A DNA stretch of 64,000 nucleotides, taken from a virus. This document shows positions 4,703-64,000 of this stretch, piece after piece. Below the pieces are notes generated by a model. The model searched no databases. It saw only the letters and a list, made by a program, of their open reading frames with translations, and was not told the DNA's origin. Numbering within the stretch: position 1 is the stretch's first letter; each line of letters begins with the position of its first letter. Both the position numbers and the translations under genes were made by a program. The stretch spans positions 1 to 64,000 of the IMG/VR virus record IMGVR_UViG_3300023242_000004; one strand, 5' to 3'.

Positions 4703-5055
4703 TAATCGCAACTACATTTACCATTTGGGTTATCACCACAATTACATGGGTTTACTTCTTCGTCTATTTCAATATCTTCATCTGCGACATCGATGTCTAA
4801 CCCCACAGCAAAACTTTCTTTGATTTCTTCAACCATCTTATTTATTTTTTTCATGTCTGCTTCTGCTACAACAAGTGGATTAATACACTCAATTTTTTCC
4901 TCACCTTTGGTTGGTAAGAAGAATGCTAAAGCGTTAGCGTTTTTATGCGCTAACAAGTTGTTTACCGATTCAGCGAATGGCTGAATAATTTCTGGCATTT
5001 TCATCATATCTGCATCCAAGTAGAATACTATGATTAGCGGATAACCTTCTTTCAT
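4702..5055 (-). CDS. hypothetical protein with Cys-rich tail
   Basis: Ends CNCGDNPNGKCSCD. Confidence 0.7.
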   Translation of the reverse strand: MKEGYPLIIVFYLDADMMKMPEIIQPFAESVNNLLAHKNANALAFFLPTKGEEKIECINPLVVAEADMKKINKMVEEIKESFAVGLDIDVADEDIEIDEEVNPCNCGDNPNGKCSCD

Positions 5056-5060
5056 TTGTT

Positions 5061-5300
5061 TTATTTATTATATGTTGTTATTTCTTCAATCATTTCTTTT
5101 AAGACTGATTTATTCAATGGTTCAGCCATCTCTAAAAGAAGCATGTTAACTCTTTCTTCTTTTGCAACATAACCAATTTCGTTAAAACATTGGGTATTAA
5201 CCCCATCAATAGTTACATATATTAAATACTCACTAATGTAATTTTTTACACTTTTTCGACTATAAAATCGGTCAATTTCTTTTATTATTATTTTTTTCAT
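5061..5300 (-). CDS. hypothetical protein (start reassigned to ATG 5300)
   Basis: TAnnTTTG box at 5315-5322 just upstream of this ATG. Confidence 0.6.
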   Translation of the reverse strand: MKKIIIKEIDRFYSRKSVKNYISEYLIYVTIDGVNTQCFNEIGYVAKEERVNMLLLEMAEPLNKSVLKEMIEEITTYNK

Positions 5301-5424
5301 TGTTTTAATTTTCACAAAAGTAACCAAAAAATTTAAACATGTAAAGTCTAAAATAAAAAAAACCAATAAAGAGTTTTTTTTATACTAATTCACAAGATGC
5401 GGGGGTGTTTACTTCAAACCCTTA

Positions 5425-6876
5425 TTAAACCGTTACTACCGAGTAACGTTCAGAGTCGATAACTGACATCATCATTGAGATTGGTGTCATGTCTTTACCA
5501 CCTAACAAGTTAGTAAGTAAAGATGGGCTAAAACCAGACACCAAAGCAGTGCCATTCGTATCGAACTGAACTGGTTTGTTGTTATCACCTCTAGATTGGA
5601 TATTCCAATATACAATACTAGGCATTTTGTACCCAGCATCTTCGTACATTGTATGAATCATCTCTTGAGCAGTTGGGTTCCATTTGTTAGTACTACGGTA
5701 ACTATTAACTGCCGAATTGAACTCCATATCTGACAAGATAAGAATCATAGTTGGCATCTCATCCCCAGAAACATTTAAAGCTTTTGCTTTTGACAACACA
5801 AGGTTAAATACAGCTTCTAAGTTTGTAGACATCGCCCAATCAGCTCTAGCTAATTGATTGTATCTGTCATTCAACGAACCCTTAAGGATTTGAAGAGTTG
5901 GATATTCGGAAAACGTTACGAAAGCGTCTTGGAATGGACCAACATTTCTTTCAGAGATATATAATCCCAAAGAGATTGCTACATCCATACAAGTTACATT
6001 AGCGTTTCCACCAACTGGACTTTCCATTGACCCCGAAACGTCAACAACTGGAAGTACTCTTTCCGCACTACCTTCCATAAAGTTAGGTAAAGCATCCCAT
6101 TGTACATTAGCACCTTTGGAGTTACCTTGCTTTAGGTTTTTAACTATGTCGTATGGGTACACAGCACCAGCGTTAATTTTTGCTTCACCTTTCTCAACCG
6201 AAGTTAAGTAAGTTTGAAAACGCTCCAAGTCATTTTTTGAGAACGCTTTCATCAAGTCACTCATCGCTTTTGAAGGCAATTTAGAATACTCAATTTTAGA
6301 CCACTCTTTAGCGCACATCAATTGCTCAACTGTGTTAGAGTTTTCTACCAACAATTTACGGTACTCTTTTGGAGTTAACCCTAAATGTTTTCTTAAAGCG
6401 TTTGCCCATCTTTTCTTTTCACGGTTATCTACATTTGGACGTGGCATCCATTTACCCACCAATTTATTATTATTCGCTAACCCATCAGCGATTAATGATA
6501 GAGCATCAGACTCCAAAGGTGTACCCACTAGTACTAATAAGTCATCCCAACGACCAAACTCACTAATCAAGTTCAAGTTTTTACGTAACGTTTCCGTTCT
6601 GTTTTCAGCTAAATATTCGATGATGTCTCTAAAAACTTTACGTTCTCCAGCACCACCTCTTATATCACGTGCCCAGAATAAAAGCCGCATTGCAGTCAAT
6701 GTATCTTCACTAAATGCTTTGGTGAACACGTTGATTAGACGTTGTTTATCTTGACCTCTCATAGCACCAATCTGGAAGAATAAATCAACACAGTGGTTCA
6801 ACGAAGAAGAATTAGTAGACATCCCGTTTTCAGTTAACGAATTTTTTGTTTGCATAGCATTTAATAATGTACTCAT
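5425..6876 (-). CDS. DUF2828 / TROVE-like protein with vWA domain
   Basis: TENG start, RDIRGGAGER, GRWDDL, KWMPR, MIDAS VVDVSGSM, LSDMEF, SGFS. Confidence 0.88.
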   Translation of the reverse strand: MSTLLNAMQTKNSLTENGMSTNSSSLNHCVDLFFQIGAMRGQDKQRLINVFTKAFSEDTLTAMRLLFWARDIRGGAGERKVFRDIIEYLAENRTETLRKNLNLISEFGRWDDLLVLVGTPLESDALSLIADGLANNNKLVGKWMPRPNVDNREKKRWANALRKHLGLTPKEYRKLLVENSNTVEQLMCAKEWSKIEYSKLPSKAMSDLMKAFSKNDLERFQTYLTSVEKGEAKINAGAVYPYDIVKNLKQGNSKGANVQWDALPNFMEGSAERVLPVVDVSGSMESPVGGNANVTCMDVAISLGLYISERNVGPFQDAFVTFSEYPTLQILKGSLNDRYNQLARADWAMSTNLEAVFNLVLSKAKALNVSGDEMPTMILILSDMEFNSAVNSYRSTNKWNPTAQEMIHTMYEDAGYKMPSIVYWNIQSRGDNNKPVQFDTNGTALVSGFSPSLLTNLLGGKDMTPISMMMSVIDSERYSVVTV

Positions 6877-6909
6877 GATTAATAATTTTAGTTAGTTATT
6901 TAAGTGACA

Positions 6910-6940
6910 CAAAGGTACGAACTTAATTCTCTTTTTGCAA
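6910..6940 (-). promoter_or_regulatory. Bacteroidota-type promoter TTGC-N~-TAnnTTTG (representative; also at 583, 2267, 3419, 5315, 10255, 21877, 22467, 31010, 32407, 54746, and + strand 8475, 12312)
   Basis: Recurring CAAAnnTA on + strand just upstream of minus-strand ATGs, often with GCAA further upstream. Confidence 0.75.
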
Positions 6941-7139
6941 GTTTTTTTAACTTTTCTTTTTAAAATATATTTAAAATATTTTTAAATTCTTGTAAACTAA
7001 ACTATTACATTGTTTTTTACTTTTGAAGGTTATTTAAGACAAAATAATAACCTACTTTTCCACCGTAAGGTAATCATAATTTTTACATCTACCAAACTAT
7101 TTCACGAAATTTCTAATATAGATGTATCTGACCAAGTCG

Positions 7140-22497: not shown

Positions 22498-25308
22498 CTA
22501 TTTTACGCTAATACTAGACAGATTATCTTTTTTAATAACTGTAATAATATTATTTGACCAATCCTTCACCAAATCATTGTGCGTAATAAAGAAAACAATT
22601 TCATACATATCTTTTATTTTATCAAAGAGATTTTTCAATTTTTCTAAATTTTCTGATGCCACTTTACCTAATACTTCATCAAAAGTAATAAAGTTAGGCA
22701 TAGGTAAAGTAGATAATTTACCTAACACTGCTCTAAGTGCTAAACTAGCCGCTGTTTTCTCTAACCCAGAACCAGATTTTAGTAATTTAGATATACCATC
22801 TTTAACCATTAAAAATTGGACATCGTTCTTATCATTCATAGATATCTCAATATCGAAATCTACAACATCTTCTAACAATCTTTGTGCTTCAGAATTAATA
22901 ATCGGTAAAACAGAACGCAAAACTAATTTACTAATACCTTTCTTACCAACCAACTCGATATAAATCTTGAAAATCTTATCAACTTCTTCTTCTTTTTTTA
23001 TCGTTTCTATTAATTTTGTTTTAGTGATAACACTAGTTTTATTGGTTTGTATATCTGCTTGAACCCTTTGTATGTTTATAATTGTTTGGTCTTTTGAATA
23101 TTCGCAAACCGCTAATTTTGTTTTAACGTCGATAACTTTAATCTCTATTTTTTTATTAAACTCAATAGCATGCAAATTAAGCTGATATTTTTTAAGGTCA
23201 TTTTTCTTTGCGATTACATCATTTCTCAACGAACCCATTTCAACTTCCATTCTATCAACATTTAACTCTAGTTTATTTTTGTTATCAATTAGCAATTTGT
23301 TTTCATTTAAAGTAGTTAATTTAGCAGATAACGAATTTAACGTTTCATCAACACCCAAAACTTCTTTTCTTAAATTTTCTATTTCCAATTCATGTTTAGT
23401 TATGTGTAGTGAGTTATCCACATCATCTAATTTTCTATTACACGATTGACAAACACCACCAGCAATCAAACCAGTCACAACTTTTTCAAGCCTTGTTATC
23501 TCAGCCTCTTTTAACGCTTTATTTGTAGTGTTTACATTAAAATCTTTAGAGAATTCTAAATGTTTATCTTCATCAAAATCAATTTCACCAATTGCGGTTA
23601 TCTTAACTTTTAACCCAGCAACCTTTTCTTTAAATTCAACACCTTTATCAATTAATTTATCAACTTCACTTTCTAATTTTTCTGGGTTAAGTTCTGAAAT
23701 GGTAACGTCGATTTTTTCTTTGCTATCGATTAAATCGTCTTTACTATCAGTAAGTGTTTGGATTTCAGATTTAGTGTTACCCAATTTTTGTTTTAACTCA
23801 ACATCTAATTCTTCACCCAAAATAATTTTATCATTATGGTCATCTATTTCTTCACCTAAAGTAATAACATCATATTCATTAGATTTTTTCTTCCTAGCAA
23901 ATTCATTATACATTTCTCTAGCCGCTTTTTCTTTAAGTTCTAGTATTTCTAAACCAATAAGCCTAGTTAAAATTTTTCCAGATTCAGTTGTAGTCAAACC
24001 AATAAGGTCGTCTAAGTTTTTTTCTGTTGCCAACACTAACATCTCAAAATCTTTTTCACTACCAATAGTTTCTTTAAGCCTTCTAGTTGTTTGAGTAGCG
24101 TCTTCTTCATTTAACGCTTCTTCTTCACCATCTGGAAGTATTCTGTAGTAGTTAACTCTATTTGTAACAGTCCAACCACCATCTTTTTTAGCCGTGCGTC
24201 TCATTTTACGCTCAATGATAGTCTCTTCACCCTCAATTTCAATCATACCTCTTACTACTAGTTCGTTCTTATTACTGTAGGTGTTGAAGATTTGTTCGTT
24301 TGTGTCTGTTTTTGTTGTGTTACCATGTAACAAAAATTTAATAGCGTCAATAGTTAAAGTTGTATTATGAGAAACTATACCATTGGAATAATATTGGTGG
24401 ACTTCATCTACTTGAATATCATATAGAGTATCTTTGAAATCCATCAACTTAATAGATTTAACATTAGATATTCCATTAACTGTTTGAATCCGCTCACCAA
24501 CTTCTACTTCTTTTAAAACGACAAATTCACCATCTTCTTTTTTAAGCCTGTGATAGTCAGCGCCCTCAACATATTTTCCATCTTCAAGCTCACAGCGATA
24601 TACATCCGCATTCTCTTCAGTGATACCACACCAAGTAATATCTTTATACCCGTAAGGTGTATTAACCTTAAAACCTAAATCACCATATTTTTCATATATC
24701 GAATTTAACTCACCGATTGTTATTTCGTCTGGTAAAACCCCTATTTTTTTACCTATTTCTTCCTTATCAAATTGTATATTTATCCGAGTGTCAGACCTAA
24801 CACATTTACCACCTTGATTAGCTGGAATTGAATTTACTATAGTTAAACCTTTTAATTTGCTAAAAGGAACGTAATTACTTTCACCAAAGGATAAGAAATT
24901 ATCTATCATAAGCCATTTAATTGACCAACTTCTATGTGTTGTTTGCGTTAAATCAACATTTAATTCACCGTTTACCTTGTCATCTAAAGCAACAATACGG
25001 TTGAAATCAACATTCTTACCATCTCTAGTAATTAACTCTTTCATAAGCGCTCTTTGATAGTTAACATCCATGATGTTCTCCATACCAGCACCAGTGATTT
25101 CAATGGCATCACCATCGGTATTGAACCTAACTGGTCTATAAACAACCGTTATATTATTTTTTTGAACACCGTACTTGTTAGCTATATAGTTTCTAATCTT
25201 ATTTTTGGCCTCTTTGCTGTAGTTGTGTGGTTGGTCATCCCAATATACTTTAATCTTGGAATACGGTGATATTAATGTGTTATCTAATGTATCTGTTTTA
25301 TTCGCCAT
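22498..25308 (-). CDS. sbcC: SbcC/Rad50 (gp46-like) ATPase with mini-intein
   Basis: IDNFLSFG, Walker A NQGGK|TT, coiled coil with CQSC Zn-hook, signature SGLEK, Walker B FITFDE, ITHN. Confidence 0.92.
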   Translation of the reverse strand: MANKTDTLDNTLISPYSKIKVYWDDQPHNYSKEAKNKIRNYIANKYGVQKNNITVVYRPVRFNTDGDAIEITGAGMENIMDVNYQRALMKELITRDGKNVDFNRIVALDDKVNGELNVDLTQTTHRSWSIKWLMIDNFLSFGESNYVPFSKLKGLTIVNSIPANQGGKCVRSDTRINIQFDKEEIGKKIGVLPDEITIGELNSIYEKYGDLGFKVNTPYGYKDITWCGITEENADVYRCELEDGKYVEGADYHRLKKEDGEFVVLKEVEVGERIQTVNGISNVKSIKLMDFKDTLYDIQVDEVHQYYSNGIVSHNTTLTIDAIKFLLHGNTTKTDTNEQIFNTYSNKNELVVRGMIEIEGEETIIERKMRRTAKKDGGWTVTNRVNYYRILPDGEEEALNEEDATQTTRRLKETIGSEKDFEMLVLATEKNLDDLIGLTTTESGKILTRLIGLEILELKEKAAREMYNEFARKKKSNEYDVITLGEEIDDHNDKIILGEELDVELKQKLGNTKSEIQTLTDSKDDLIDSKEKIDVTISELNPEKLESEVDKLIDKGVEFKEKVAGLKVKITAIGEIDFDEDKHLEFSKDFNVNTTNKALKEAEITRLEKVVTGLIAGGVCQSCNRKLDDVDNSLHITKHELEIENLRKEVLGVDETLNSLSAKLTTLNENKLLIDNKNKLELNVDRMEVEMGSLRNDVIAKKNDLKKYQLNLHAIEFNKKIEIKVIDVKTKLAVCEYSKDQTIINIQRVQADIQTNKTSVITKTKLIETIKKEEEVDKIFKIYIELVGKKGISKLVLRSVLPIINSEAQRLLEDVVDFDIEISMNDKNDVQFLMVKDGISKLLKSGSGLEKTAASLALRAVLGKLSTLPMPNFITFDEVLGKVASENLEKLKNLFDKIKDMYEIVFFITHNDLVKDWSNNIITVIKKDNLSSISVK
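24364..24804 (-). mobile_element. cis mini-intein (147 aa, no endonuclease) in the SbcC Walker A
   Basis: GGK|CVRSDT...GADYHRL...LYDIQVDEVHQYYSNGIVSHN|T. Confidence 0.92.
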
Positions 25309-25932: not shown

Positions 25933-26151
25933 TTATAAATTTGTTATTTTTTCTGTTCCGTTTTCAATATCCTCAATTGATTTAATTTTAAATTGATAAT
26001 AAGGGAACTTATTTTCAACATCGTGTTCAGTATATGTTTTAGTTGGGATGTCCCACAATAAAAACCCATGTTTTGTTAAGTTTTCACCAAAGTTTTGTTG
26101 TATCAATGATGAACTCATCATTATAGGAATCACTTTTTTCATTTTAATCAT
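25933..26151 (-). CDS. sbcD: SbcD/Mre11 nuclease, C-terminal fragment
   Basis: IPIMMSSSLIQQNFGE...HGFLLWD matches the YxGS...FGE...KG segment that follows motif V in SbcD. Confidence 0.8.
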   Translation of the reverse strand: MIKMKKVIPIMMSSSLIQQNFGENLTKHGFLLWDIPTKTYTEHDVENKFPYYQFKIKSIEDIENGTEKITNL

Positions 26152-27043
26152 ATTTTTTATATTTTTTTATCACATTAGCTAATAAGAATTTAAAATTTTT
26201 CTTTTTTATTTCCATTTCCCAAAATCTTTCTAAATTATAACCTTTTTCTAAGGCTAATTTATTCTTAAATTCATCATTTTCTTTATTTTTAATTTGAATT
26301 TCGGTTAAAATACTTAATTCATTATATTTAATAGGGTTTACATGCCAATAATCACCATCAGCTTCAATTAATAAATTTAACTCTATTAGGTAAAAATCAT
26401 AAGTTTTAAATTTATTACCATAATAAACATCATATTGGGTTTGAAACTTAATTTTATTTTCTATTAAAATATTACTAATTTTAATTTCAATATTTGTACC
26501 TTTAGTTTTCTTTAACCCTTCCCTCATTAACTGAAATGATGTTTTACCATATTTTAATAAACATGTATTATTAGCGATTTCTCTAAATTCTTTAACGCTT
26601 AATATACACTCAGCACCATATTTATCTAAATTAGTTTCATTTTTCTTTAAACAAGATTCCTCATCTGTACCCATCCAAAATCCATTATCATTAAAAAATT
26701 TTTCATGTCCAATTTTAACTTTTTCTTTATGTTCATCATTCCGCCATATTTTTTTCATTCTAATAGAATGATGTTCTTTCCATTCATCACTATGCTTAAT
26801 GTTAAATACTGGGTTACCCTCTTTTAAATAAAGTTCTTTTTGATGAGAATCTTTACATATCCTAGAACAATATTTTTTCCCGTTCTCAAGTTTATTAGGT
26901 AACGTTTCAAATTCATTTTTACAATATAAACAATTTTCTTTAACTCTATTAACTTTTATTTCTTTATAACCAATATGTTGACATTTAATTGAACAATATA
27001 CTTTATTTTTAGTTTCTTTTTGACAGATTTTACATTTATTCAT
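26144..27043 (-). CDS. free-standing putative homing endonuclease (Zn ribbons plus Vsr/DUF559-like domain)
   Basis: CxxC...YCSxxC x2; YDFYL...LLIEADGDYWH...GYNLERFWE. Confidence 0.85.
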   Translation of the reverse strand: MNKCKICQKETKNKVYCSIKCQHIGYKEIKVNRVKENCLYCKNEFETLPNKLENGKKYCSRICKDSHQKELYLKEGNPVFNIKHSDEWKEHHSIRMKKIWRNDEHKEKVKIGHEKFFNDNGFWMGTDEESCLKKNETNLDKYGAECILSVKEFREIANNTCLLKYGKTSFQLMREGLKKTKGTNIEIKISNILIENKIKFQTQYDVYYGNKFKTYDFYLIELNLLIEADGDYWHVNPIKYNELSILTEIQIKNKENDEFKNKLALEKGYNLERFWEMEIKKKNFKFLLANVIKKYKKYD

Positions 27044-56606: not shown

Positions 56607-56993
56607 TTATAGTTTTACTACTACTATGTCTGATGTTGTAAAAACAGCATCTGTTATTGTATATTTTAAAGTGAACACAGCAGCGTATTCGCTTTCAGTT
56701 GATTCTTCAACCAAAATTTCATCCAATTGTAATTTTGGTAAATAAAGTTTTACTACTGATTTAATTTCTTCTTTAACACCATTTAATGTCATCCCATCTT
56801 GTGGTTCAAAGATAAATTTTAATAAATCAGTACCAAAGTTTGGTTTATAAAGTCTTTGACCTTTTCTAGTCAATATTATATGTAGAAGGTCGGCTTTTAT
56901 CGCTTGACTATCTTCATCATTTAAATCTAAGAAAAAACCTTTGTTACTATTCTTAAAAGGATAATTTATATTTATGTATTTACCGTTTGCCAT
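56607..56993 (-). CDS. baseplate protein, gp25-like
   Basis: IKADLLHIILTRKGQRLYKPNFGTDL..FIFEP. Confidence 0.9.
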   Translation of the reverse strand: MANGKYININYPFKNSNKGFFLDLNDEDSQAIKADLLHIILTRKGQRLYKPNFGTDLLKFIFEPQDGMTLNGVKEEIKSVVKLYLPKLQLDEILVEESTESEYAAVFTLKYTITDAVFTTSDIVVVKL

Positions 56994-57056
56994 AATTGTG
57001 TTTATTTGATAAATATCATACTAAACAATTTTTATAAGTAAATATGGGAAATAAAA

Positions 57057-57079
57057 AAAGGGTCCCTATTGGACCCTTT
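57057..57079. terminator. intrinsic terminator after nrdA
   Basis: AAAGGGTCC-CTATT-GGACCCTTT. Confidence 0.8.
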
Positions 57080-57096
57080 AATTTGTTTATCTTTTA

Positions 57097-57714
57097 TTAA
57101 CTTGAACAACCCACGCACTCAAATTGACTCTCGGTAGGTTTTTCTACTTGTTTTTGTTTTGTCATATCAATAGCTAAATGTTTAGCTTTCATATCAACGG
57201 ACTCACTCCTTAAATAATACTGACCAGTTTTAAGTCCTAATTTCCAAGACAAATTATGTGATGTAGTTAATTTACCAACAGTAGGTGTACTAAAGAAAAT
57301 ATTAAGACTTTGCGATTGGTCAATGAATGGTGCTCTATCAGCAGACATTTCGATTAACGCTTTTTGGGAAATTTCCCAAACTGTTTTATACCTTTCTTTC
57401 ATCTCTGAACTAATAACTGGTATGTTTTGAACACTACCATTATTTTTTATCAATTCACTAAGAATTTCTCTATTCCATAAACCTTCTGATTCTAAATCTC
57501 TAACTAGGTGTTTGTTTACCATAGCGAATTCACCACCAGTCACTCTTCGAACATAAAGATTTGAAGTGAACGGTTCGAAAGCTTCGTTTGAACCAATTAC
57601 ACGAGCAGAATTATGACTAACACAACCATTTTCCATTATATAATGATTCACGTTTGGTACTTCAATATCCCACGTAGGTTTTATATCACCCTTAGTTATT
57701 TTTTTTATTTTCAT
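57097..57714 (-). CDS. nrdA: NrdA part 3: split-intein IntC2 (35 aa) plus C-terminal extein (170 aa)
   Basis: TWDIEV...NGCVSHN|SARVIG.NEAFEP, FIDQSQSLN, GLKTGQYYLR, terminal CVGCSS. Confidence 0.93.
   Translation of the reverse strand: MKIKKITKGDIKPTWDIEVPNVNHYIMENGCVSHNSARVIGSNEAFEPFTSNLYVRRVTGGEFAMVNKHLVRDLESEGLWNREILSELIKNNGSVQNIPVISSEMKERYKTVWEISQKALIEMSADRAPFIDQSQSLNIFFSTPTVGKLTTSHNLSWKLGLKTGQYYLRSESVDMKAKHLAIDMTKQKQVEKPTESQFECVGCSS
57610..57714 (-). mobile_element. split intein 2, C-fragment
   Basis: Blocks F and G, HN|S. Confidence 0.9.
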
Positions 57715-57983
57715 AATTTATTCTTTAAAATTTTATTTATTTTTTCTTTATTTATTTTTTCAGAATCCGAAGACCATAATTCTATATAGTTACCCCATTT
57801 TAAATTACCATCGTGTTCACCCCATTTAATTATAAACATTTCTAAGGTGTGTTTACTTTTATCACAAAATTCTTGGTATTTTAATGGACCATAAATTTCG
57901 CCATGATTAAAAATAAAACTCTCTAAAGTCCTACCACACTTTAATTTATGTAACCTTACTTTTTCAATAGATTCATTATTCAT
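57711..57983 (-). pseudogene. degenerate homing endonuclease remnant
   Basis: TLE.FI..(H/W)GE..G..K(Y/W) repeats and INKEK end like ORF 62943, but no nuclease domain. Confidence 0.7.
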
Positions 57984-58082
57984 TAAACCTTTTTTTAACC
58001 AATACTCAATTTTGAATGGTGATGGTTTGTTAGATATTTTTATATGTTTTATTAACTACGTACACAACACTTAAACGACCTA

Positions 58083-59069
58083 CTACTTTTCAAATATATT
58101 TAATATATCGTCCGTGGCTACCAAATCAATTACTTCAACCCATATTCCATCATTACCTCTTTTTACTTTGAATTTATGATTTTCAGTTGCTTCAAAAATT
58201 GACCCATCTTCCATTTCTATTTTATAGACAACAGAATGTGCGTTATACTTTATTTTATTAACTTCTTCATACCCATTAATTGTTTTAACATTAAAAGCTT
58301 TTAAATCTAACCATTGTTGTAGATTCATACTTTCTAATTGTTCCCAATCAATATTGTTTTCTTCTAATATATCTTTAAATGATTTAACACCACTTTCAGT
58401 ATGAATCCTAGTATCAATAACTTGACAACTAGCTGTTGGTGGGCATGTTGTAACTAAAGAGTTTCTAACACCATATTTTTTAATGTCTTTTCTTAACCCT
58501 TTCCAATCATGCATACCAGATAAATTATCTTCAGTCAACCCCCACATTTGCCATTGGAAAATACCTTCAGAAATTGGTGAACCCTCGTAACCATCATACG
58601 TTAACCCAGTTTTTTTAGCTAAAGCACAAGATTCACTTAAAGCATTAAAATAAATCGTTTCAAATATGTCTTTATTTAATTGTCTAGCTATTTCACCAGT
58701 GAACGGTAATTTTAATATAGCAAACACATCTGCTAAACCTTGTATACCAATACCTAATGCTCTTTGTTCTAAACCACCTTTTCTACCTTCTGGTGTTGAA
58801 TATTCGTTAACCTCTAAAGCTATGTTTAATGATTTTGTTATTGAACGTGCTACTTTACCCAATCCTATGAAGTCGTAAACTCCATCTATAATATATTTTT
58901 GAACTGGGATGCTAGTAAGCGTACAAATAGCTGTTGTTTCAGCGTTGGTCGTCTCCATAATTTCCGAACAATTATGTACTAATATATCATTACCAAAAAA
59001 ATTATGGTTATCCTCAACAGTAATATCGTATACTGGTATTTTTTCGTTTAATTTTTCTATTTTTATCAT
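58083..59069 (-). CDS. nrdA: NrdA part 2: IntC1 (33 aa) plus middle extein (181 aa) plus IntN2 (114 aa)
   Basis: VYDITV...ILVHN|CSEI...AICTLTS...RALGIGIQGLAD...GVRNS...PPTAS|CQVIDT...ATENHKF. Confidence 0.93.
   Translation of the reverse strand: MIKIEKLNEKIPVYDITVEDNHNFFGNDILVHNCSEIMETTNAETTAICTLTSIPVQKYIIDGVYDFIGLGKVARSITKSLNIALEVNEYSTPEGRKGGLEQRALGIGIQGLADVFAILKLPFTGEIARQLNKDIFETIYFNALSESCALAKKTGLTYDGYEGSPISEGIFQWQMWGLTEDNLSGMHDWKGLRKDIKKYGVRNSLVTTCPPTASCQVIDTRIHTESGVKSFKDILEENNIDWEQLESMNLQQWLDLKAFNVKTINGYEEVNKIKYNAHSVVYKIEMEDGSIFEATENHKFKVKRGNDGIWVEVIDLVATDDILNIFEK
58086..58427 (-). mobile_element. split intein 2, N-fragment
   Basis: Block A CQVIDTRI, block B ATENHKF, ends DLVATDDIL. Confidence 0.9.
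58971..59069 (-). mobile_element. split intein 1, C-fragment
   Basis: Blocks F and G, HN|C. Confidence 0.9.
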
Positions 59070-59074
59070 TTATT

Positions 59075-59821
59075 TTAATTTTTAAATTTCCATTTAAAAC
59101 CACCAGCAGTGGTTCCTTGTTTACAAGCTCTACTAATTCCAGACTTATGTTTAATATTATTCTTTTCAGCTGCTTCAACAGTAGTTAAGTAAGTGTCAAT
59201 TTCTTCACCATTTACACTCATTTTAACAACAGTTTTAGCGTTTGGGTTATTTTCTCTAGTATTATTAATAGACATCTTTTTTAAAGTTTCATCATTAGCT
59301 TTTCTACCTAAGTTCCAATGATTACCATTTATTTTAGCTTTATGTGATGGTCGTTCTTTTAAAGATAACCCATACATATTGTTATTAACACCAGTAGCGT
59401 TTAACCTATGTTTTTCACGTATTTCTTCTTTATTTGGGTTATTAGTAAACGTATCACCACCTAACCCACCTTTAGTTAAATTGGTTAGAATACCACTTTT
59501 ATTATGTCTAAAACCCATTATATCTATTAATAAACTTTCAATATCATAAGCGGTTTGTTCTTCTAACCCTTCAACTATTTTTATTATTATGGGTTCTAAC
59601 CCATTTTTTAATATTTGATTAATAACATTTAACTTATAAATATTATTTGTTAAATCTTTATTTTGTTCTTTTATTAACTTTAAATGTTTTTCTAACCTAT
59701 TAGAACTATCTTTACCCTTTCCAATATAAAAAGGTTTATTTTTAAAAATATAATTTCCAAAATTATACTCACCAATTTCTCTAGGGTCCAAGTAAGCGTA
59801 CACATAATATTTTTTTTCCAT
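59075..59821 (-). CDS. GIY-YIG-type homing endonuclease with C-terminal NUMOD1-like domain
   Basis: YYVYAYLDPR...PFYIGKG...R..H...E..LI...G.LTN...GG; C-terminal TAGGFKW. Confidence 0.85.
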   Translation of the reverse strand: MEKKYYVYAYLDPREIGEYNFGNYIFKNKPFYIGKGKDSSNRLEKHLKLIKEQNKDLTNNIYKLNVINQILKNGLEPIIIKIVEGLEEQTAYDIESLLIDIMGFRHNKSGILTNLTKGGLGGDTFTNNPNKEEIREKHRLNATGVNNNMYGLSLKERPSHKAKINGNHWNLGRKANDETLKKMSINNTRENNPNAKTVVKMSVNGEEIDTYLTTVEAAEKNNIKHKSGISRACKQGTTAGGFKWKFKN

Positions 59822-59862
59822 TGTGATTTCCATTATGTATATATACATAATGGAAATCACAA
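59821..59862. promoter_or_regulatory. perfect 42-bp palindrome over the endonuclease translation start region
   Basis: TTGTGATTTCCATTATGTATA|TATACATAATGGAAATCACAA. Confidence 0.75.
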
Positions 59863-59867
59863 AAAGA

Positions 59868-61442
59868 TTAAAATATTTCTAATACATCAGTCTCAACTAA
59901 ATCTTTAGCTAACACATATCCTCTATTTTTTGTGAATATTTGGTGTTCTGGTGTGCAAATAATATGTTTACCAGTTTCCTCATCAGTTATCTTTAAAACA
60001 TCAGCTGACTCATTCATTAAGGCAGCATTTGTTATCTTTTTATATTCTGGTTTATTTGTTTCAATATTATAACTTAATACTTCTATACCGTGTTCTACAT
60101 TAAAATCGTTAACAACATCGGAAATATTAAAATCAACTTCCTTACCATGATATTTTGTTTTAATAATTGTTTTACCATCAACACACAAATTACTAGAGTG
60201 AATCATACCAATATTTTTTTGGTTGGATTTCTCATTAACGTGGTCTTTAAAGCACATATATGGCATACCAGTTTCAATTTGTGATTCCAAAATTTTAAGC
60301 CATAAATCATGTGCTTTAATTTTAGTACCAATACCCATCTCTACGGCCTTATTATATTCTTCCTCATACTCTTTACCATAAATCTCATAAAATGGCTTTA
60401 AACCAGCTTCTTTTATGTCGTTTGGGCAGAATAAATACCAAGCATCATTTGTTTCAACAGCTCTCATAAAATTATTTGGAATCCATAGTGCTGAAAATAA
60501 GTCACGAGCCCTTAAAGTATCATCACCTGTCTTTTTTCTTATATCTAAAACGTCGAAAACATCTTTATGCCATGGTTCAATATAAACAGCACAAGAGCCA
60601 GGTCTTTTACCTCTTTGGTTCCAGAATCTAAGTGTTTCATTAACAACTTTAAGGTATTTTAAAATACCACCAGCTTTTCCGTTTGAATTACCCACATTAC
60701 TTTCTTTTGAACGAATATTTGAAATAGCTAAACCTATACCTTCTGCTTTTGATGATGATATAGCAATTCTACCTAGGATATCTAATAACCCTTCTGTTGA
60801 ATCATCTGGAACAATCGATAAATTACATGAGGCAATTTGACCAATTGTTGTTCCTATGTTCATTTTTATAGGCGTTGCTGGGCTTTCTTTTTGATTACTT
60901 ATGTAATTGTATTTTTCAATAAAATCTTCAGCGTTTTCTGTCACCATAAGAGCGACCCTAACATACATTTGTTGTGGTCTTTCTACTATCACGCCATCTT
61001 TTGTTTTTAAAAGATATATGTCTTTAAGAGAACACCAACCAAAATAATCAAAATTAAAATCTCTAGAATAATCGATTGTTGATTCGATTAACTCTATATT
61101 TTCTTTAACTTTATTAAAATACACATCATTCAATAAACCTAAATTATACATTTTTTTTATTGCCTTCATGAACGAGTCATCGGTTTCTTTATGTAATTTA
61201 GTTATGGATATATTTGCAGCCAATTTTGAATAGTCTGGATGATTCATAGCTAATGATTCAGATACGACTGAAATCAAATCATCTAACTCATTTGTTGTCA
61301 TATCATCAGCAATACCTTGCGTAACCTTTATAAACACCTCGTCAGCGTTAACTTTTAACCCTTCGGATTGTTTTTTTATTCTGGTAAGAATTTTATTTGG
61401 GTTAAAATCTATTTTATTACCGTTTCTTTTTATTACTTGCAT
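59868..61442 (-). CDS. nrdA: NrdA part 1: ATP-cone plus N-terminal extein (419 aa) plus IntN1 (105 aa)
   Basis: VIKRNG ATP-cone, ERPQ, SPATP, ASC, QRGKRPG, ETGMPY, SSNL|CVDGKT...CTPEHQIFT. Confidence 0.95.
   Translation of the reverse strand: MQVIKRNGNKIDFNPNKILTRIKKQSEGLKVNADEVFIKVTQGIADDMTTNELDDLISVVSESLAMNHPDYSKLAANISITKLHKETDDSFMKAIKKMYNLGLLNDVYFNKVKENIELIESTIDYSRDFNFDYFGWCSLKDIYLLKTKDGVIVERPQQMYVRVALMVTENAEDFIEKYNYISNQKESPATPIKMNIGTTIGQIASCNLSIVPDDSTEGLLDILGRIAISSSKAEGIGLAISNIRSKESNVGNSNGKAGGILKYLKVVNETLRFWNQRGKRPGSCAVYIEPWHKDVFDVLDIRKKTGDDTLRARDLFSALWIPNNFMRAVETNDAWYLFCPNDIKEAGLKPFYEIYGKEYEEEYNKAVEMGIGTKIKAHDLWLKILESQIETGMPYMCFKDHVNEKSNQKNIGMIHSSNLCVDGKTIIKTKYHGKEVDFNISDVVNDFNVEHGIEVLSYNIETNKPEYKKITNAALMNESADVLKITDEETGKHIICTPEHQIFTKNRGYVLAKDLVETDVLEIF
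59871..60185 (-). mobile_element. split intein 1, N-fragment
   Basis: Block A CVDGKT, block B CTPEH, ends RGYVLAKDLVETDVL. Confidence 0.9.
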
Positions 61443-61459
61443 ACTTTTATTTATTAATG

Positions 61460-62413
61460 TTAAATTTCTTCATCAAATGAGATTGGCCCACTTAAATCAG
61501 CTGATTTATATTCCGTTGAACGACCCTCGAAAAAATTTGCCTTTGTTTTTAAAGCAATTTGATTCATAAACTCAAAAGGGTTTTTACTATTAAATTCTTT
61601 ATCGCACTCTAATTGTTGTAATAAACCATCAACAACAAACTCTAAATATTGTTTCATAACATTAGAGTTCATACCAATAAGCGAAACTGGTAATGATTCA
61701 GTAATAAATTCTTTCTCAATCTCTAAAGCAGATAAGAAAATTTCTTTGATTCTTTCTTTAGATGGTTTATCAACTATATGATTATTTAATAAATGAATAG
61801 CAAAATCAGCATGCATAGCTTCATCTCTAGAAATGAACGTATTTGAATCACATAAACCTGGCATTAAACCTCTAGATTTTAAATAAAAAATACTACAGAA
61901 AGAACCAGAAAAGAAAATACCCTCCACAGCAACAAACGCTATTAATCTCTCAACAAAAGATTCAGATTCAATCCATTTTAACGCCCATTCAGCTTTTTTC
62001 TTAACTGGTGGCATGTATTCAATAGCGTTAAAACATTCTTGTCTTTCTTTAGTATCTTTAATGTATGTATCGATAAGTAAAGAATACATTTGACTATGGA
62101 TATTTTCCATCATAATTTGAAAACCGTAAAAAAACTTTGCTTCGGTGTATTGAACCTCATTTAAGAAATTTATAGCTAGATTTTCGTTCACTATACCGTC
62201 ACTGGCAGCAAAGAAGGCTAACACGTTTTTAACGAAAAATCTTTCTTTTTCAGTTAGTTTATTGTTCCAGTGGTCAATGTCTTTAGATAAATCAACTTCT
62301 TGAGTTGTCCACATAGCACTTAATTGTGTTTCATACAAATCCCAAATATCTTGGTGTTCAATAGGAAAAAGCACAAATCTGTTTGGGTTGTTAATTAATA
62401 TTGGTTCGTTCAT
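61460..62413 (-). CDS. nrdB: ribonucleotide reductase class Ia beta subunit
   Basis: [42 protein letters not shown]. Confidence 0.96.
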
Positions 62414-62448
62414 TTTTTTATTAAATTATTATTTTATTTTATTTTGTA

Positions 62449-62937
62449 TTATTGTTGAGTTGGGCTATTTAATATAGTGTTTCTGTTTTGAGCGGCCGCT
62501 AATACTGTATTAACTCTGTTTTGGTTTACTTCGTCTTTATCCATCTTATGTTCCGTTTGACTTCTAGCGCCTTTACTTTTACCCATATCTATTTGAATTT
62601 TTGCGTTATCAAATCTTATATCTTGAAAGATAATACCATCTTTACCAAATCTAGATTTAAGTATCGCCATTGTCGCAGTACCAGCTTCTTTTTGGTCTAA
62701 GTTTTTCGCTATAGACACAATAAAGTGACCAATTTGACCTTTTTTAATTGAACCACCTATTTGGTTAGCTTCAACCACATCAGCCGAAATAGAGCTGTTG
62801 TGTGTGTAAATATCGTTACCATAAAACATATGTGTGTCTTCTACGGTGATATCAATAGTGTCTTCCTCACCAATTAACTCAATTGATTCGATTTCATCCA
62901 AATCAAAATTACTTAAATCTAAATTGTGTTTTACCAT
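62449..62937 (-). CDS. replicative helicase (gp41/DnaB-like) C-terminal part with split-intein C-fragment
   Basis: TIDITVEDTHMFYGNDIYTHN|SS...GSIKK.QI..F.VSI...ILKSRFG. Confidence 0.85.
   Translation of the reverse strand: MVKHNLDLSNFDLDEIESIELIGEEDTIDITVEDTHMFYGNDIYTHNSSISADVVEANQIGGSIKKGQIGHFIVSIAKNLDQKEAGTATMAILKSRFGKDGIIFQDIRFDNAKIQIDMGKSKGARSQTEHKMDKDEVNQNRVNTVLAAAQNRNTILNSPTQQ
62797..62937 (-). mobile_element. split intein 3, C-fragment (47 aa)
   Basis: Blocks F and G resembling gp41-1 IntC; HN|S. Confidence 0.85.
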
Positions 62938-62942
62938 TTTTT

Positions 62943-63998
62943 TTATTTTAAAAAGTTTAAACATTTCTCTAATGTTTTTTCTTTATTTATTTTGTATTCA
63001 CTTTCTTTAATCCTTAATATTTTATAACCCTTACCAATTAAAAACTCATCTCTTACCATATCTTTAGATTTTTGTTCTGGTTTAGAATGCCAATAATCAC
63101 CATCAAACTCAATTATTTTATCACCACATTTGAAATCGACAAGTATAGTAAAAATATTTTTTATGTTAACGTAGAAATACTCTTCACCATTTAATTCCGC
63201 AAATTTAACATTAATTTTATCAATATCTGTTAATTTATTAAATAATAACCAAAATAATTCCTGTGATATCTTACTATAATAGACACCACTTCTAAATTGT
63301 TTATCTAAAAACTCAATAAATTTTATTTTACCAACTTTACAACCATATCTATCGATAAATGATTGTAATGACGTTTTTGACATAGTGGTACAATATTCTA
63401 ACCATTTAACTTTACCATGTTTATCACCATATAAATCAATAAAATATTTTTCACTAAATCGATATTTTTGTTGGTTGTTACGTTTTATCCATTTTTGATA
63501 ACCAACTTTAACCCCATCTCTATCTTGATATTCAACTAAAGTTCTACCATTTCTATATGGTTTAATTTTCCTACGTTCTTTTTGGGTCTCAATTTTCTTA
63601 GTTAAACGTTCTTGCCATTTTTTAGTACCTTCAGTCTCACCATATCTTTCAATGCAAGCTTCAAATCCCCAAGGTGTTTTTGAATTAACTAAATATTCAG
63701 TATATTTATTAACCCCATCTTCTTTACCATATTTTTTAATATAACCATCTAACGTATGTGCAAATTTAACATATAATTCTGATTTAACCAATTCAACATT
63801 TTCTTTACCATACCTAATTTCTAAAGCATATTCAGAAGCGATATCATTTTTTAAAACGTTGATGATGATATTAAGTCTTTCTAACCAATCACCATCAACA
63901 TTAAATTTAATAAAATCATGTATATTTTTCATTCTATTCTTAATTCTTACATTATCGTAAACTTCTAATATTTTACTTATTTCAGTCTTTTGACATTC
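62943..63998 (-). CDS. putative homing endonuclease, Vsr/DUF559-like with KYG repeats (frame open to window edge)
   Basis: YSKISQELF, VDF...KIIEFDGDYWH, RDEFL..KGYKILRIKE; no stop upstream of 63932 within the window. Confidence 0.82.
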   Translation of the reverse strand, partial: ECQKTEISKILEVYDNVRIKNRMKNIHDFIKFNVDGDWLERLNIIINVLKNDIASEYALEIRYGKENVELVKSELYVKFAHTLDGYIKKYGKEDGVNKYTEYLVNSKTPWGFEACIERYGETEGTKKWQERLTKKIETQKERRKIKPYRNGRTLVEYQDRDGVKVGYQKWIKRNNQQKYRFSEKYFIDLYGDKHGKVKWLEYCTTMSKTSLQSFIDRYGCKVGKIKFIEFLDKQFRSGVYYSKISQELFWLLFNKLTDIDKINVKFAELNGEEYFYVNIKNIFTILVDFKCGDKIIEFDGDYWHSKPEQKSKDMVRDEFLIGKGYKILRIKESEYKINKEKTLEKCLNFLK

Positions 63999-64000
63999 TG

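Follow-up and report, generated by a model that had tools for sequence, protein, structure and literature searches.

Organization of the nrdA locus

The window analysed here is the whole of a 64,000-nucleotide stretch of viral DNA (positions 1 to 64,000 of IMG/VR record IMGVR_UViG_3300023242_000004), from an uncultured and probably giant phage. Reading of the open reading frames (ORFs) and their junctions places the large subunit of ribonucleotide reductase (RNR), NrdA, at 57097-61442, split over three minus-strand ORFs whose exteins measure 419, 181 and 170 aa, or 770 aa in all (Table 1). Every piece is free of frameshifts and internal stops. An intact nrdB gene lies immediately upstream of part 1 on the same strand, and its product would be the partner of the assembled NrdA. 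Endonuclease-related ORFs fill both gaps, and no terminator-like site was found between the three pieces on their strand.

Table 1. Features of the split nrdA locus, with positions in the window
Feature	Position	Strand	Basis or remark
Part 1: 419-aa extein ending SSNL, 105-aa IntN1 starting CVDGKT	61442-59868	(-)	
Part 2: 33-aa IntC1, 181-aa extein, 114-aa IntN2	59069-58083	(-)	
Part 3: 35-aa IntC2, 170-aa extein	57714-57097	(-)	
nrdB, RNR small subunit, 317 aa	61460..62413	(-)	Pfam Ribonuc_red_sm, E 4.8e-104
NrdA N-extein, 419 aa: ATP-cone, all-alpha domain, first half of barrel	60186..61442	(-)	Pfam, TIGR02506
IntN1, N-half of split intein 1, 105 aa	59871..60185	(-)	Cys1 and block B TPEH; stop codon 59868-59870
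Perfect 19-bp RNA hairpin	59823..59860	(-)	Between part-1 stop and likely GIY-YIG ATG
Free-standing GIY-YIG homing endonuclease gene, gap 1	59075..59860	(-)	Pfam, TIGR01453
IntC1, C-half of split intein 1, 33 aa, ending VHN	58971..59069	(-)	TIGR01443, Pfam
NrdA middle extein, 181 aa, CSEI to PPTAS	58428..58970	(-)	RRM1/Rnr1 alignment
IntN2, N-half of split intein 2, 114 aa	58086..58427	(-)	Cys1 and block B TENH; TAG TAG at 58085-58080
90-aa ORF, relic of Vsr-like homing endonuclease, gap 2	57711..57983	(-)	L009 alignment
IntC2, C-half of split intein 2, 35 aa, ending NGCVSHN	57610..57714	(-)	TIGR01443
NrdA C-extein, 170 aa, SARV to CVGCSS	57100..57609	(-)	Stop codon 57097-57099
Terminator-like hairpin and T-run	57057..57079	(-)	Just 3' of part 3

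Coverage of the NrdA profiles in Pfam and TIGR02506 is contiguous across the three exteins and includes the ATP-cone, the N-terminal all-alpha domain and the full barrel domain. The N-extein matches Pfam ATP-cone, Ribonuc_red_lgN and positions 1-213 of Ribonuc_red_lgC, together with positions 1-295 of TIGR02506; the C-extein matches positions 393-523 of Ribonuc_red_lgC and 479-615 of the 616 positions of TIGR02506. The middle extein aligns over its full length with human RRM1 (429-606) and yeast Rnr1 (428-610; E 2e-44). The exteins are colinear with the uninterrupted NrdA genes of related phages, and in intein-free relatives such as L012 they follow one another directly in a single frame, with neither gap nor overlap.

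Catalytic motifs are spread over all three pieces (SSNL joined to CSEI, ASCNL, AICTL, GQYYL and CVGC), and the C-extein carries the YY pair and the C-terminal CVGC. We take these motifs to comprise the N-x-C-x-E loop, the two redox cysteines, the YY pair and the C-terminal Cys pair. Residue 1 of the middle extein, the +1 Cys of intein 1, aligns with position 429 of human RRM1 and is the thiyl-radical Cys of NrdA. By these features the three exteins and the adjacent nrdB fit a class Ia RNR, with the exteins as its alpha subunit. A previous sequence-only reading had proposed three ORFs with two different split inteins, a full-length class Ia NrdA of 770 aa upon their removal, and the NxCxE cysteine as the +1 residue of intein 1. 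All of these proposals hold, and the junctions agree to the residue.

Two split inteins

Both interruptions carry the full set of splicing residues expected of class 1 split inteins of the HINT fold. IntN1 begins with CVDGKT and has its block B within ...CTPEH, which provides the position-1 nucleophile and the TxxH motif. It matches Pfam Intein_splicing (E 6.4e-8) and is related to the NrdJ-1 intein (PDB 8ubs, E 1.7e-12). IntC1 scores 39.6 bits against TIGR01443 (intein_Cterm; cut-off 15.6), matches Intein_splicing positions 124-155 (E 2.8e-9) and ends in ...ILVHN/CSEI, a terminal His-Asn followed by the +1 Cys. H32 and N33 of IntC1 are invariant in 56 homologous sequences.

In intein 2, IntN2 begins with CQVIDT, has block B within ...ATENH, and thus likewise provides the position-1 nucleophile and TxxH; it scores 30.5 bits against TIGR01445 (intein_Nterm; cut-off 24.5). 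Its Cys1 and block-B His are invariant in the 56 sequences, with T or S at the head of the block. Against solved structures, IntN2 finds only weak matches to DnaE and gp41-1 (E 0.08-0.8). IntC2 scores 22.9 bits against TIGR01443 (cut-off 15.6) and ends in ...NGCVSHN/SARV, again a terminal His-Asn, here followed by a +1 Ser. Across 61 sequences D16, H34 and N35 are invariant and the +1 residue is S or T. IntN2 and IntC2 together make one complete intein, because natural cis mini-inteins join such halves by linkers of 3-6 residues (P0044, P0052, P0053 and that of phage CPt10). A literature search found no characterised member of this family.

Contents of the gaps

The GIY-YIG ORF of gap 1 spans 261 aa from a GTG, although translation likely begins at the ATG at 59821-59819 to give 248 aa. 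It matches Pfam LEM-3_GIY-YIG (E 3.5e-12), NUMOD3 and TIGR01453 (E 2.4e-10). The protein has a catalytic domain and a DNA-binding module, and the gene looks intact. The homologous protein of contig L001 is longer (395 aa) and has an additional NUMOD1. The perfect hairpin ahead of the likely start has a minimum free energy of -27.6 kcal/mol (z -7.9; 0/200 shuffles fold as well) and probably limits translation of the endonuclease. The endonuclease stop lies 5 nt from the start of IntC1, without overlap.

The 90-aa ORF of gap 2 has no Pfam or NCBIfam match. Its residues 3-64 correspond to residues 24-85 of an intact 359-aa endonuclease in contig L009 (66% identity, E 1e-33), and its residues 65-90 to residues 327-352 (81% identity, E 1e-10). 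Because only the two ends of the intact protein match, the ORF is a deletion relic: an in-frame deletion removed about 240 residues, including the nuclease core that a Vsr-like homing endonuclease must have, and the original start codon is gone. Its stop overlaps the start of part 3 (ATGA). The expectation of a GIY-YIG gene in the first gap and an endonuclease remnant in the second therefore holds. By sequence, the fractured-gene layout (N-part with IntN, endonuclease, IntC with C-part, all on one strand) occurs twice in one gene, although gap 2 has no more than a relic of the endonuclease. Of the further hallmarks of such genes, the hairpin precedes the GIY-YIG gene, and the overlap between endonuclease and IntC is found in gap 2.

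Recurrence, alleles and selection

Eight viral contigs (L001-L007 and L011), no two of which share an IMG/VR dataset id, have the same three-ORF layout, and middle pieces of the IntC-extein-IntN type account for 63 of the best 120 protein clusters. Given this recurrence, the layout is neither chance nor an assembly error. The splicing residues of both inteins are invariant across 56 middle and 61 C-terminal pieces whose exteins are only ~47% identical. Between three-piece alleles, dN/dS is 0.05-0.35 for IntC1, IntN2 and IntC2 and 0.02-0.23 for the exteins.

Related viral contigs carry all four states of the locus. An allele without inteins is known (for example, in L012), as is an intein-1-only allele in the sister contig L010, whose DNA is 94-97.5% identical and which has the exact empty site ...GCTAGT/TCAGCT... 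where 813 nt of IntN2, relic and IntC2 stand here. An intein-2-only allele retains an intact Vsr-like endonuclease, and alleles with both inteins occur with or without endonucleases. Three-piece alleles in L002-L004 and L006 lack both endonucleases, so the split state outlives them. In L006, intein 1 sits one residue later, after the Cys, with a +1 Ser. Together these alleles, from the empty site through one intein to two and with endonucleases present or absent, document the homing cycle compactly in nature and show how a gene can come to be fragmented for good.

Relation to known systems

Among the closest known systems are the fractured genes NrdA-1 to NrdA-7 of the GOS metagenomes (Dassa et al., 2009; PMC2677866). 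As in those genes, the thiyl-radical Cys of NrdA is immediately preceded by a split intein, the halves of which are separated by a free-standing endonuclease gene (GIY-YIG or Vsr-like) on the same strand, a hairpin precedes the endonuclease gene, and the 3' end of an endonuclease gene overlaps the start of IntC (PMC2677866). In contrast to those genes, which comprise two pieces and one split intein, the present locus has a second, unrelated split intein at PTAS/S, and the endonuclease of this second intein is a deletion relic. IntN1 is homologous to its NrdJ-1 counterpart (PDB 8ubs), and IntC1 shares the tail ...NFF.N.ILVHN. [quoted passage not shown]

Cultured phages provide further relatives. 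Campylobacter phage CPt10 (L081) has inteins at the same two sites (IntC1 73% and IntN2 34% identical); in contrast to the present locus, the single split, in intein 1, gives two pieces, intein 2 being one contiguous mini-intein, and the locus is annotated as a pseudogene. The Campylobacter phages vB_CcoM-IBB_35 and CP220 also match the intein halves of this locus, and a published account describes two inteins interrupting nrdA of vB_CcoM-IBB_35 (PMC3322345). Klebsiella phage KP13-7 (OP617745, Alcyoneusvirus) shares both split inteins; its gap 1 holds a GIY-YIG gene and its gap 2 a 323-aa ORF, and its IntC2 is 69% identical. Unlike the locus described here, it has an extra, intein-less break with an HNH gene and hence four ORFs. 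Its pieces are annotated as nrdA_1, nrdA_2 and hypothetical, and the two-intein layout went unrecognised in this cultured phage; a literature search found no paper on the KP13-7 nrdA locus.

Phage Aeh1 represents a different outcome. Its nrdA is also broken by a homing endonuclease gene (nrdA-a, mobE and nrdA-b; PMC2677866), but its chains remain separate and functional without splicing, whereas both breaks here carry complete intein halves. Assembly of one chain from at least three fragments is otherwise known from engineered tandem trans-splicing with split inteins that do not cross-react, for example that of Pinto et al. (2020; PMC7090010), who combined the gp41-1 and NrdJ-1 families. Both families also occur in the present genome; in contrast to the designed constructs, the arrangement here is natural and its second intein belongs to the family for which no characterised member was found. 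The sequence-only reading had doubted that a natural three-piece example had been characterised, and a literature search, which missed most subscription journals, likewise found no natural protein of three pieces joined by two split inteins. In print the three-piece layout was found only for engineered proteins. Among phage metagenomes, however, it is common and widespread rather than rare, and at least one cultured phage has it.

Proposed trans-splicing and its alternatives

We consider it likely, with a probability of roughly 0.8, that NrdA is assembled from the three polypeptides by natural three-way trans-splicing through the two split inteins. Two unrelated inteins would have invaded phage nrdA at two conserved active-site positions, after which a free-standing homing endonuclease gene would have split each of them; all that the gap 2 relic still retains is its coupling to the piece 3 start. 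Because each intein is split by an endonuclease gene and no terminator-like site separates the pieces, three polypeptides are expected from the locus. In the proposed order of events, IntN1 of piece 1 would bind IntC1 of piece 2, and class 1 splicing (a thioester at Cys1 is attacked by the +1 Cys, and the terminal Asn cyclises) would link ...SSNL to CSEI..., freeing the Cys destined to become the thiyl radical. IntN2 of piece 2 would then bind IntC2 of piece 3, and ...PPTAS would be joined to SARV... through the +1 Ser. The 770-aa class Ia product would act with the adjacent NrdB. This reading is well supported because the catalytic residues are invariant, selection is purifying, the empty-site alleles are exact and the split persists after endonuclease loss.

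It is unlikely that the three chains instead assemble non-covalently into an active RNR, with the intein halves serving only as docking domains, like the relic tails of Aeh1 NrdA, and one joint or both spliced incompletely or not at all. Such assembly has a precedent in Aeh1, where nrdA-a and nrdA-b products associate without splicing (PMC2677866; PMC3045599), and NrdA of KP13-7 has an additional break that holds an HNH gene and lacks an intein. However, docking alone would not preserve Cys1, [T/S]xxH, the block-F Asp, the terminal HN and the +1 nucleophile across 56 and 61 diverse sequences, and an unspliced IntC1 would sit on the radical Cys, where it would likely block catalysis. Very unlikely, in turn, is a decaying, non-functional nrdA that merely propagates selfish elements. 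The relic state of the gap 2 endonuclease and the description of related Campylobacter phage loci as degenerating or pseudogenic, including CPt10, which Dwivedi et al. read as a pseudogene (PMC3653736), would suit decay. The record is moreover a fragment (CheckV completeness 27%), so a second RNR could exist elsewhere and relax selection. Against decay stand the low dN/dS of exteins and intein halves, the undamaged reading frames, the retention of all conserved catalytic motifs and of nrdB, and a layout kept while exteins diverged to ~45% identity.

That sequencing or assembly errors created the stops, or that an intron, read-through or frameshift fuses the ORFs, is scarcely credible, and nothing was found in its favour. 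The same breaks recur in dozens of protein clusters and in at least eight contigs that were assembled independently, and the gaps are occupied by whole endonuclease genes. For RNA splicing, an Rfam search at a relaxed threshold detected no intron in 56900-64000; for read-through or frameshifting, IntN2 is followed by four in-frame stops and the frame of part 3 is different. If trans-splicing is the correct reading, related loci now filed as pseudogenes or hypothetical proteins would merit new annotation.

Presumed orthogonality of the intein pairs

Three-way trans-splicing would require that the two pairs avoid cross-reaction. If IntN1 paired with IntC2, the middle piece would be left out, and if IntC1 paired with IntN2, that piece would be circularised or concatenated; any such cross-reaction would be lethal to the NrdA product. 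Mutual orthogonality is an inference from the 34% and 38% identity between the halves of the two inteins. Both IntN halves are acidic (net charge -7 and -9), which means that charge by itself offers no obvious way to keep the pairs apart. Chemists assemble proteins from three or more fragments with orthogonal split inteins, and the locus indicates that phages may already do so, and often. It would offer two inteins kept compatible by selection on one polypeptide with an IntC-extein-IntN middle piece.

A broader proposal stands at about even odds. The two NrdA pairs and the gp41-1-like pair of the neighbouring helicase gene may form a naturally co-selected, mutually orthogonal trio in one infected cell, and intein 2 (IntN of ~114 aa, IntC of 35 aa, +1 Ser/Thr) may represent an uncharacterised, very widespread split-intein family. 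Intein-stitched multi-piece enzymes may, on the same proposal, be a stable end state and not a passing stage, since the split persists after endonuclease loss. If so, the intein 2 family could be used for one-pot three-fragment ligation. For the middle piece, AlphaFold2 modelling with a 56-sequence alignment, which speaks neither for nor against orthogonality, gives a confident extein (pLDDT 84-97) and values of ~70-87 for IntN2, and leaves IntC1 (residues 1-40) unstructured at 33-42.

Architecture of the split nrdA locus

Five minus-strand ORFs lie directly downstream of nrdB at the nrdA locus of the window. The sequence-only reading had interpreted three of them as pieces of a 770-aa NrdA (419 + 181 + 170 aa) to be joined by two different split inteins, and the ORFs and junctions read in the window bear out both the total and the arrangement. 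No terminator-like sites were found between the nrdA pieces on the same strand, and a terminator-like hairpin follows the last piece.

Features of the nrdA locus and of other intein or endonuclease loci in the window (IntN and IntC, N- and C-terminal intein halves)
Feature	Positions	Strand	Description
nrdB	61460-62413	minus	immediately upstream of part 1
Part 1	61442-59868	minus	524 aa; 419-aa extein to SSNL, then IntN1, 105 aa (CVDGKT...CTPEH...)
GIY-YIG ORF	59860-59075	minus	gap 1, between parts 1 and 2
Part 2	59069-58083	minus	328 aa; IntC1, 33 aa (...ILVHN), 181-aa extein CSEI to PPTAS, IntN2, 114 aa (CQVIDT...ATENH...)
Small ORF	57983-57711	minus	90 aa; gap 2, between parts 2 and 3
Part 3	57714-57097	minus	205 aa; IntC2, 35 aa (...NGCVSHN), 170-aa extein SARV to CVGCSS
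Terminator-like hairpin	57079-57057		just 3' of part 3
Fractured helicase gene	62449-64000	minus	continues to 65452 in the source record (G000:C1)
Helicase N-part			gp41/DnaB-like, 352 aa, with 90-aa IntN
Helicase-locus endonuclease	64064-62943	minus	Vsr-like (DUF559), 373 aa
Helicase C-part			preceded by 56-aa IntC; +1 Ser
SbcC/Rad50-like (gp46-like) ORF	22498-25308	minus	936 aa
Mini-intein in this ORF	about 24364-24804		contiguous; GGK/C...SHN/TT
ORF with Vsr-like motif	26144-27043	minus	299 aa

All four intein halves matched intein models in profile searches. IntC1 and IntC2 scored 39.6 and 22.9 bits against TIGR01443 (cut-off 15.6) and IntN2 scored 30.5 bits against TIGR01445 (cut-off 24.5), with IntN1 slightly below that cut-off at 22.7 bits. 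IntN1 has a homologue of solved structure in the NrdJ-1 intein (8ubs, E 1.7e-12); IntN2 shows weak similarity only to solved inteins. The two inteins are different from each other by sequence, with IntN1 and IntN2 34% identical and IntC1 and IntC2 38% identical. Natural cis forms, where 3-6 residues link an IntN2-like half to an IntC2-like half, occur among homologous proteins and in Campylobacter phage CPt10, indicating that IntN2 and IntC2 are together a complete mini-intein (about 150 aa) with its split in the usual position.

Together, the three exteins cover the Pfam and NCBIfam profiles of NrdA without a gap. Pieces 1, 2 and 3 match positions 1-213, about 214-392 and 393-523 of Ribonuc_red_lgC, and 1-295, from 294 on and 479-615 of TIGR02506; the ATP-cone and the all-alpha domain are both in part 1. 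In intein-free relatives, the three exteins lie back to back in one frame (in L012, for example, at 4744-6000, 6001-6585 and 6586-7095). Over its whole length the middle extein aligns with human RRM1 429-606 and yeast Rnr1 428-610 (E 2e-44), and its first residue is thus the cysteine of the N-x-C-x-E loop, as had been proposed for the +1 Cys of intein 1. Each piece carries motifs known as catalytic in RNR: piece 1 has ASCNL and SSNL, piece 2 has CSEI and AICTL, and piece 3 has GQYYL and CVGC. The nearest NrdA relatives in cultured phages belong to Cellulophaga and Tenacibaculum phages (41-46% identity).

Proposed trans-splicing and its alternatives

The sequence evidence makes it most likely that the three chains are made separately and that two independent class-1 trans-splicing reactions would join them into a 770-aa NrdA. 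The alternatives are non-covalent assembly of the chains, as in phage Aeh1, a decaying pseudogene, and an artefact. None of these explains invariant splicing residues together with low dN/dS. In an alignment of 56 middle and 61 C pieces, whose exteins are about 47% identical to those of the window, the HN of IntC1, Cys1 and [T/S]xxH of IntN2, and the block-F Asp and HN of IntC2 are invariant, and the +1 residue after IntC2 is Ser or Thr. Comparisons of three-piece alleles give dN/dS values of 0.08-0.26 (IntC1), 0.08-0.35 (IntN2) and 0.05-0.24 (IntC2), beside 0.02-0.23 for the exteins.

The middle piece is laid out as IntC-extein-IntN, and cross-reaction between the pairs would circularise or skip it, so that the two pairs would have to be orthogonal; we infer that they are from their divergence only. 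IntN is acidic in both NrdA pairs, whereas polarity is reversed in the gp41-1-like helicase pair (IntN +5, IntC -8), as described for gp41-1 (Dassa et al., 2009; PMC2677866). Published work has combined gp41-1 with NrdJ-1 as orthogonal pairs (PMC7090010).

The fractured genes of Dassa et al. (2009; PMC2677866) are each broken in two, with one split intein per gene, whereas the nrdA of the window has three pieces and two split inteins. Campylobacter phage nrdA loci have been published as "two inteins" (PMC3322345) or as a pseudogene (PMC3653736). In a full-text literature search, three-piece trans-splicing turned up solely as an engineered method, and no natural case was found.

Allelic states and distribution

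Every allele state is present among 80 related viral loci: about 60 are without intein, intein 1 alone occurs in L010, L022-L025 and L043-L045, intein 2 alone in L008 and L009, and both inteins, split, in L001-L007 and L011, each from a separate IMG/VR dataset id. Sister contig L010, which shares 94-97.5% DNA identity with the window, carries intein 1 and its endonuclease but reads ...GCTAGT/TCAGCT... at the exact site of the 813-nt IntN2-relic-IntC2 segment; the helicase intein segment, a whole 1.6-kb insert, is also precisely absent. Between the two, the C-extein beside intein 2 diverges by about 4% and the middle extein by 1.3%, an excess consistent with co-conversion when intein 2 was acquired.

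Among the best 120 protein clusters (90% identity) for each query, 63 have the IntC1-extein-IntN2 layout (middle-piece query, 41-80% identity) and 93 begin with IntC2 (part-3 query). Proteins P0091-P0119 (444-514 aa) begin near residue 280 of the N-extein and continue through the middle extein into a terminal IntN2; they resemble second pieces of a different three-piece layout, in which split intein 2 comes after a break that has no intein. Two cultured phages carry both inteins. In CPt10, intein 1 is split and intein 2 is a cis form. Klebsiella phage KP13-7 (OP617745, 30877-36407) has four nrdA ORFs with three breaks in this order: one that lacks an intein and holds an HNH gene, one at split intein 1 (GIY-YIG gene) and one at split intein 2 (323-aa ORF). 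The annotation lists its middle nrdA ORFs as hypothetical proteins.

Both NrdA sites have intein lineages whose insertion points differ by one residue (L006, 5680-6110; P0021, P0035, P0044): SSNL/C versus SSNLC/S or SSNLC/C at site 1, and PTAS/S or PTAS/T versus PVA/SS at site 2. In L006, intein 1 lies one residue later (SSNLC/C...HN/SEI), at the NrdJ integration point (Dassa et al., 2009; PMC2677866). L006-type IntN1 is only about 40% identical to that of the window, yet IntC1 is 73% identical.

Endonucleases in the two gaps

Both gap genes proposed from sequence were recovered. The gap-1 ORF matches a GIY-YIG domain and a NUMOD3 motif. The stop of part 1 and the likely GIY-YIG start at 59821 are separated by a perfect 19-bp hairpin (z -7.9); similar hairpins lie upstream of endonuclease ORFs in fractured genes (Dassa et al., 2009; PMC2677866). 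Across about 400 nt (about 60207-59808), which take in IntN1, the hairpin and the beginning of the endonuclease gene, identity to L001 is 97-100% against a background of about 80%, pointing to recent exchange of this module. IntC1 is only 79% identical despite the near-identical IntN1, and one IntN1 thus apparently serves two IntC1 variants.

In gap 2, residues 3-64 and 65-90 of the 90-aa ORF match residues 24-85 and 327-352 of the intact 359-aa endonuclease at the same site in L009. By this two-segment match, the ORF is a relic that has lost the nuclease core through an in-frame deletion. The ancestral ATG of the ORF is also gone, and its stop overlaps the part-3 start (ATGA). The N-terminal repeats of the L009 protein recur in the Vsr-like endonuclease encoded at the neighbouring helicase locus (E 5e-8). 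L002-L004, L006, L007 and L011 carry both split inteins with an endonuclease in neither gap; the split state therefore outlasts the endonucleases.

Other inteins and the source phage

The helicase is a third fractured gene, with intein halves that resemble gp41-1. The mini-intein in the P-loop of the SbcC/Rad50-like protein is the fourth intein of this 95-kb fragment. The 299-aa ORF, with an ...EADGDYWH... motif resembling Vsr-like endonucleases and DUF7487 (sub-threshold) as its sole Pfam match, may be a free-standing homing endonuclease. The source record is a linear viral contig of 94,787 nt with a CheckV completeness of 27%, hence a fragment, and the contig that carries L010, a close relative, measures 155 kb; the source is therefore probably a jumbo phage.
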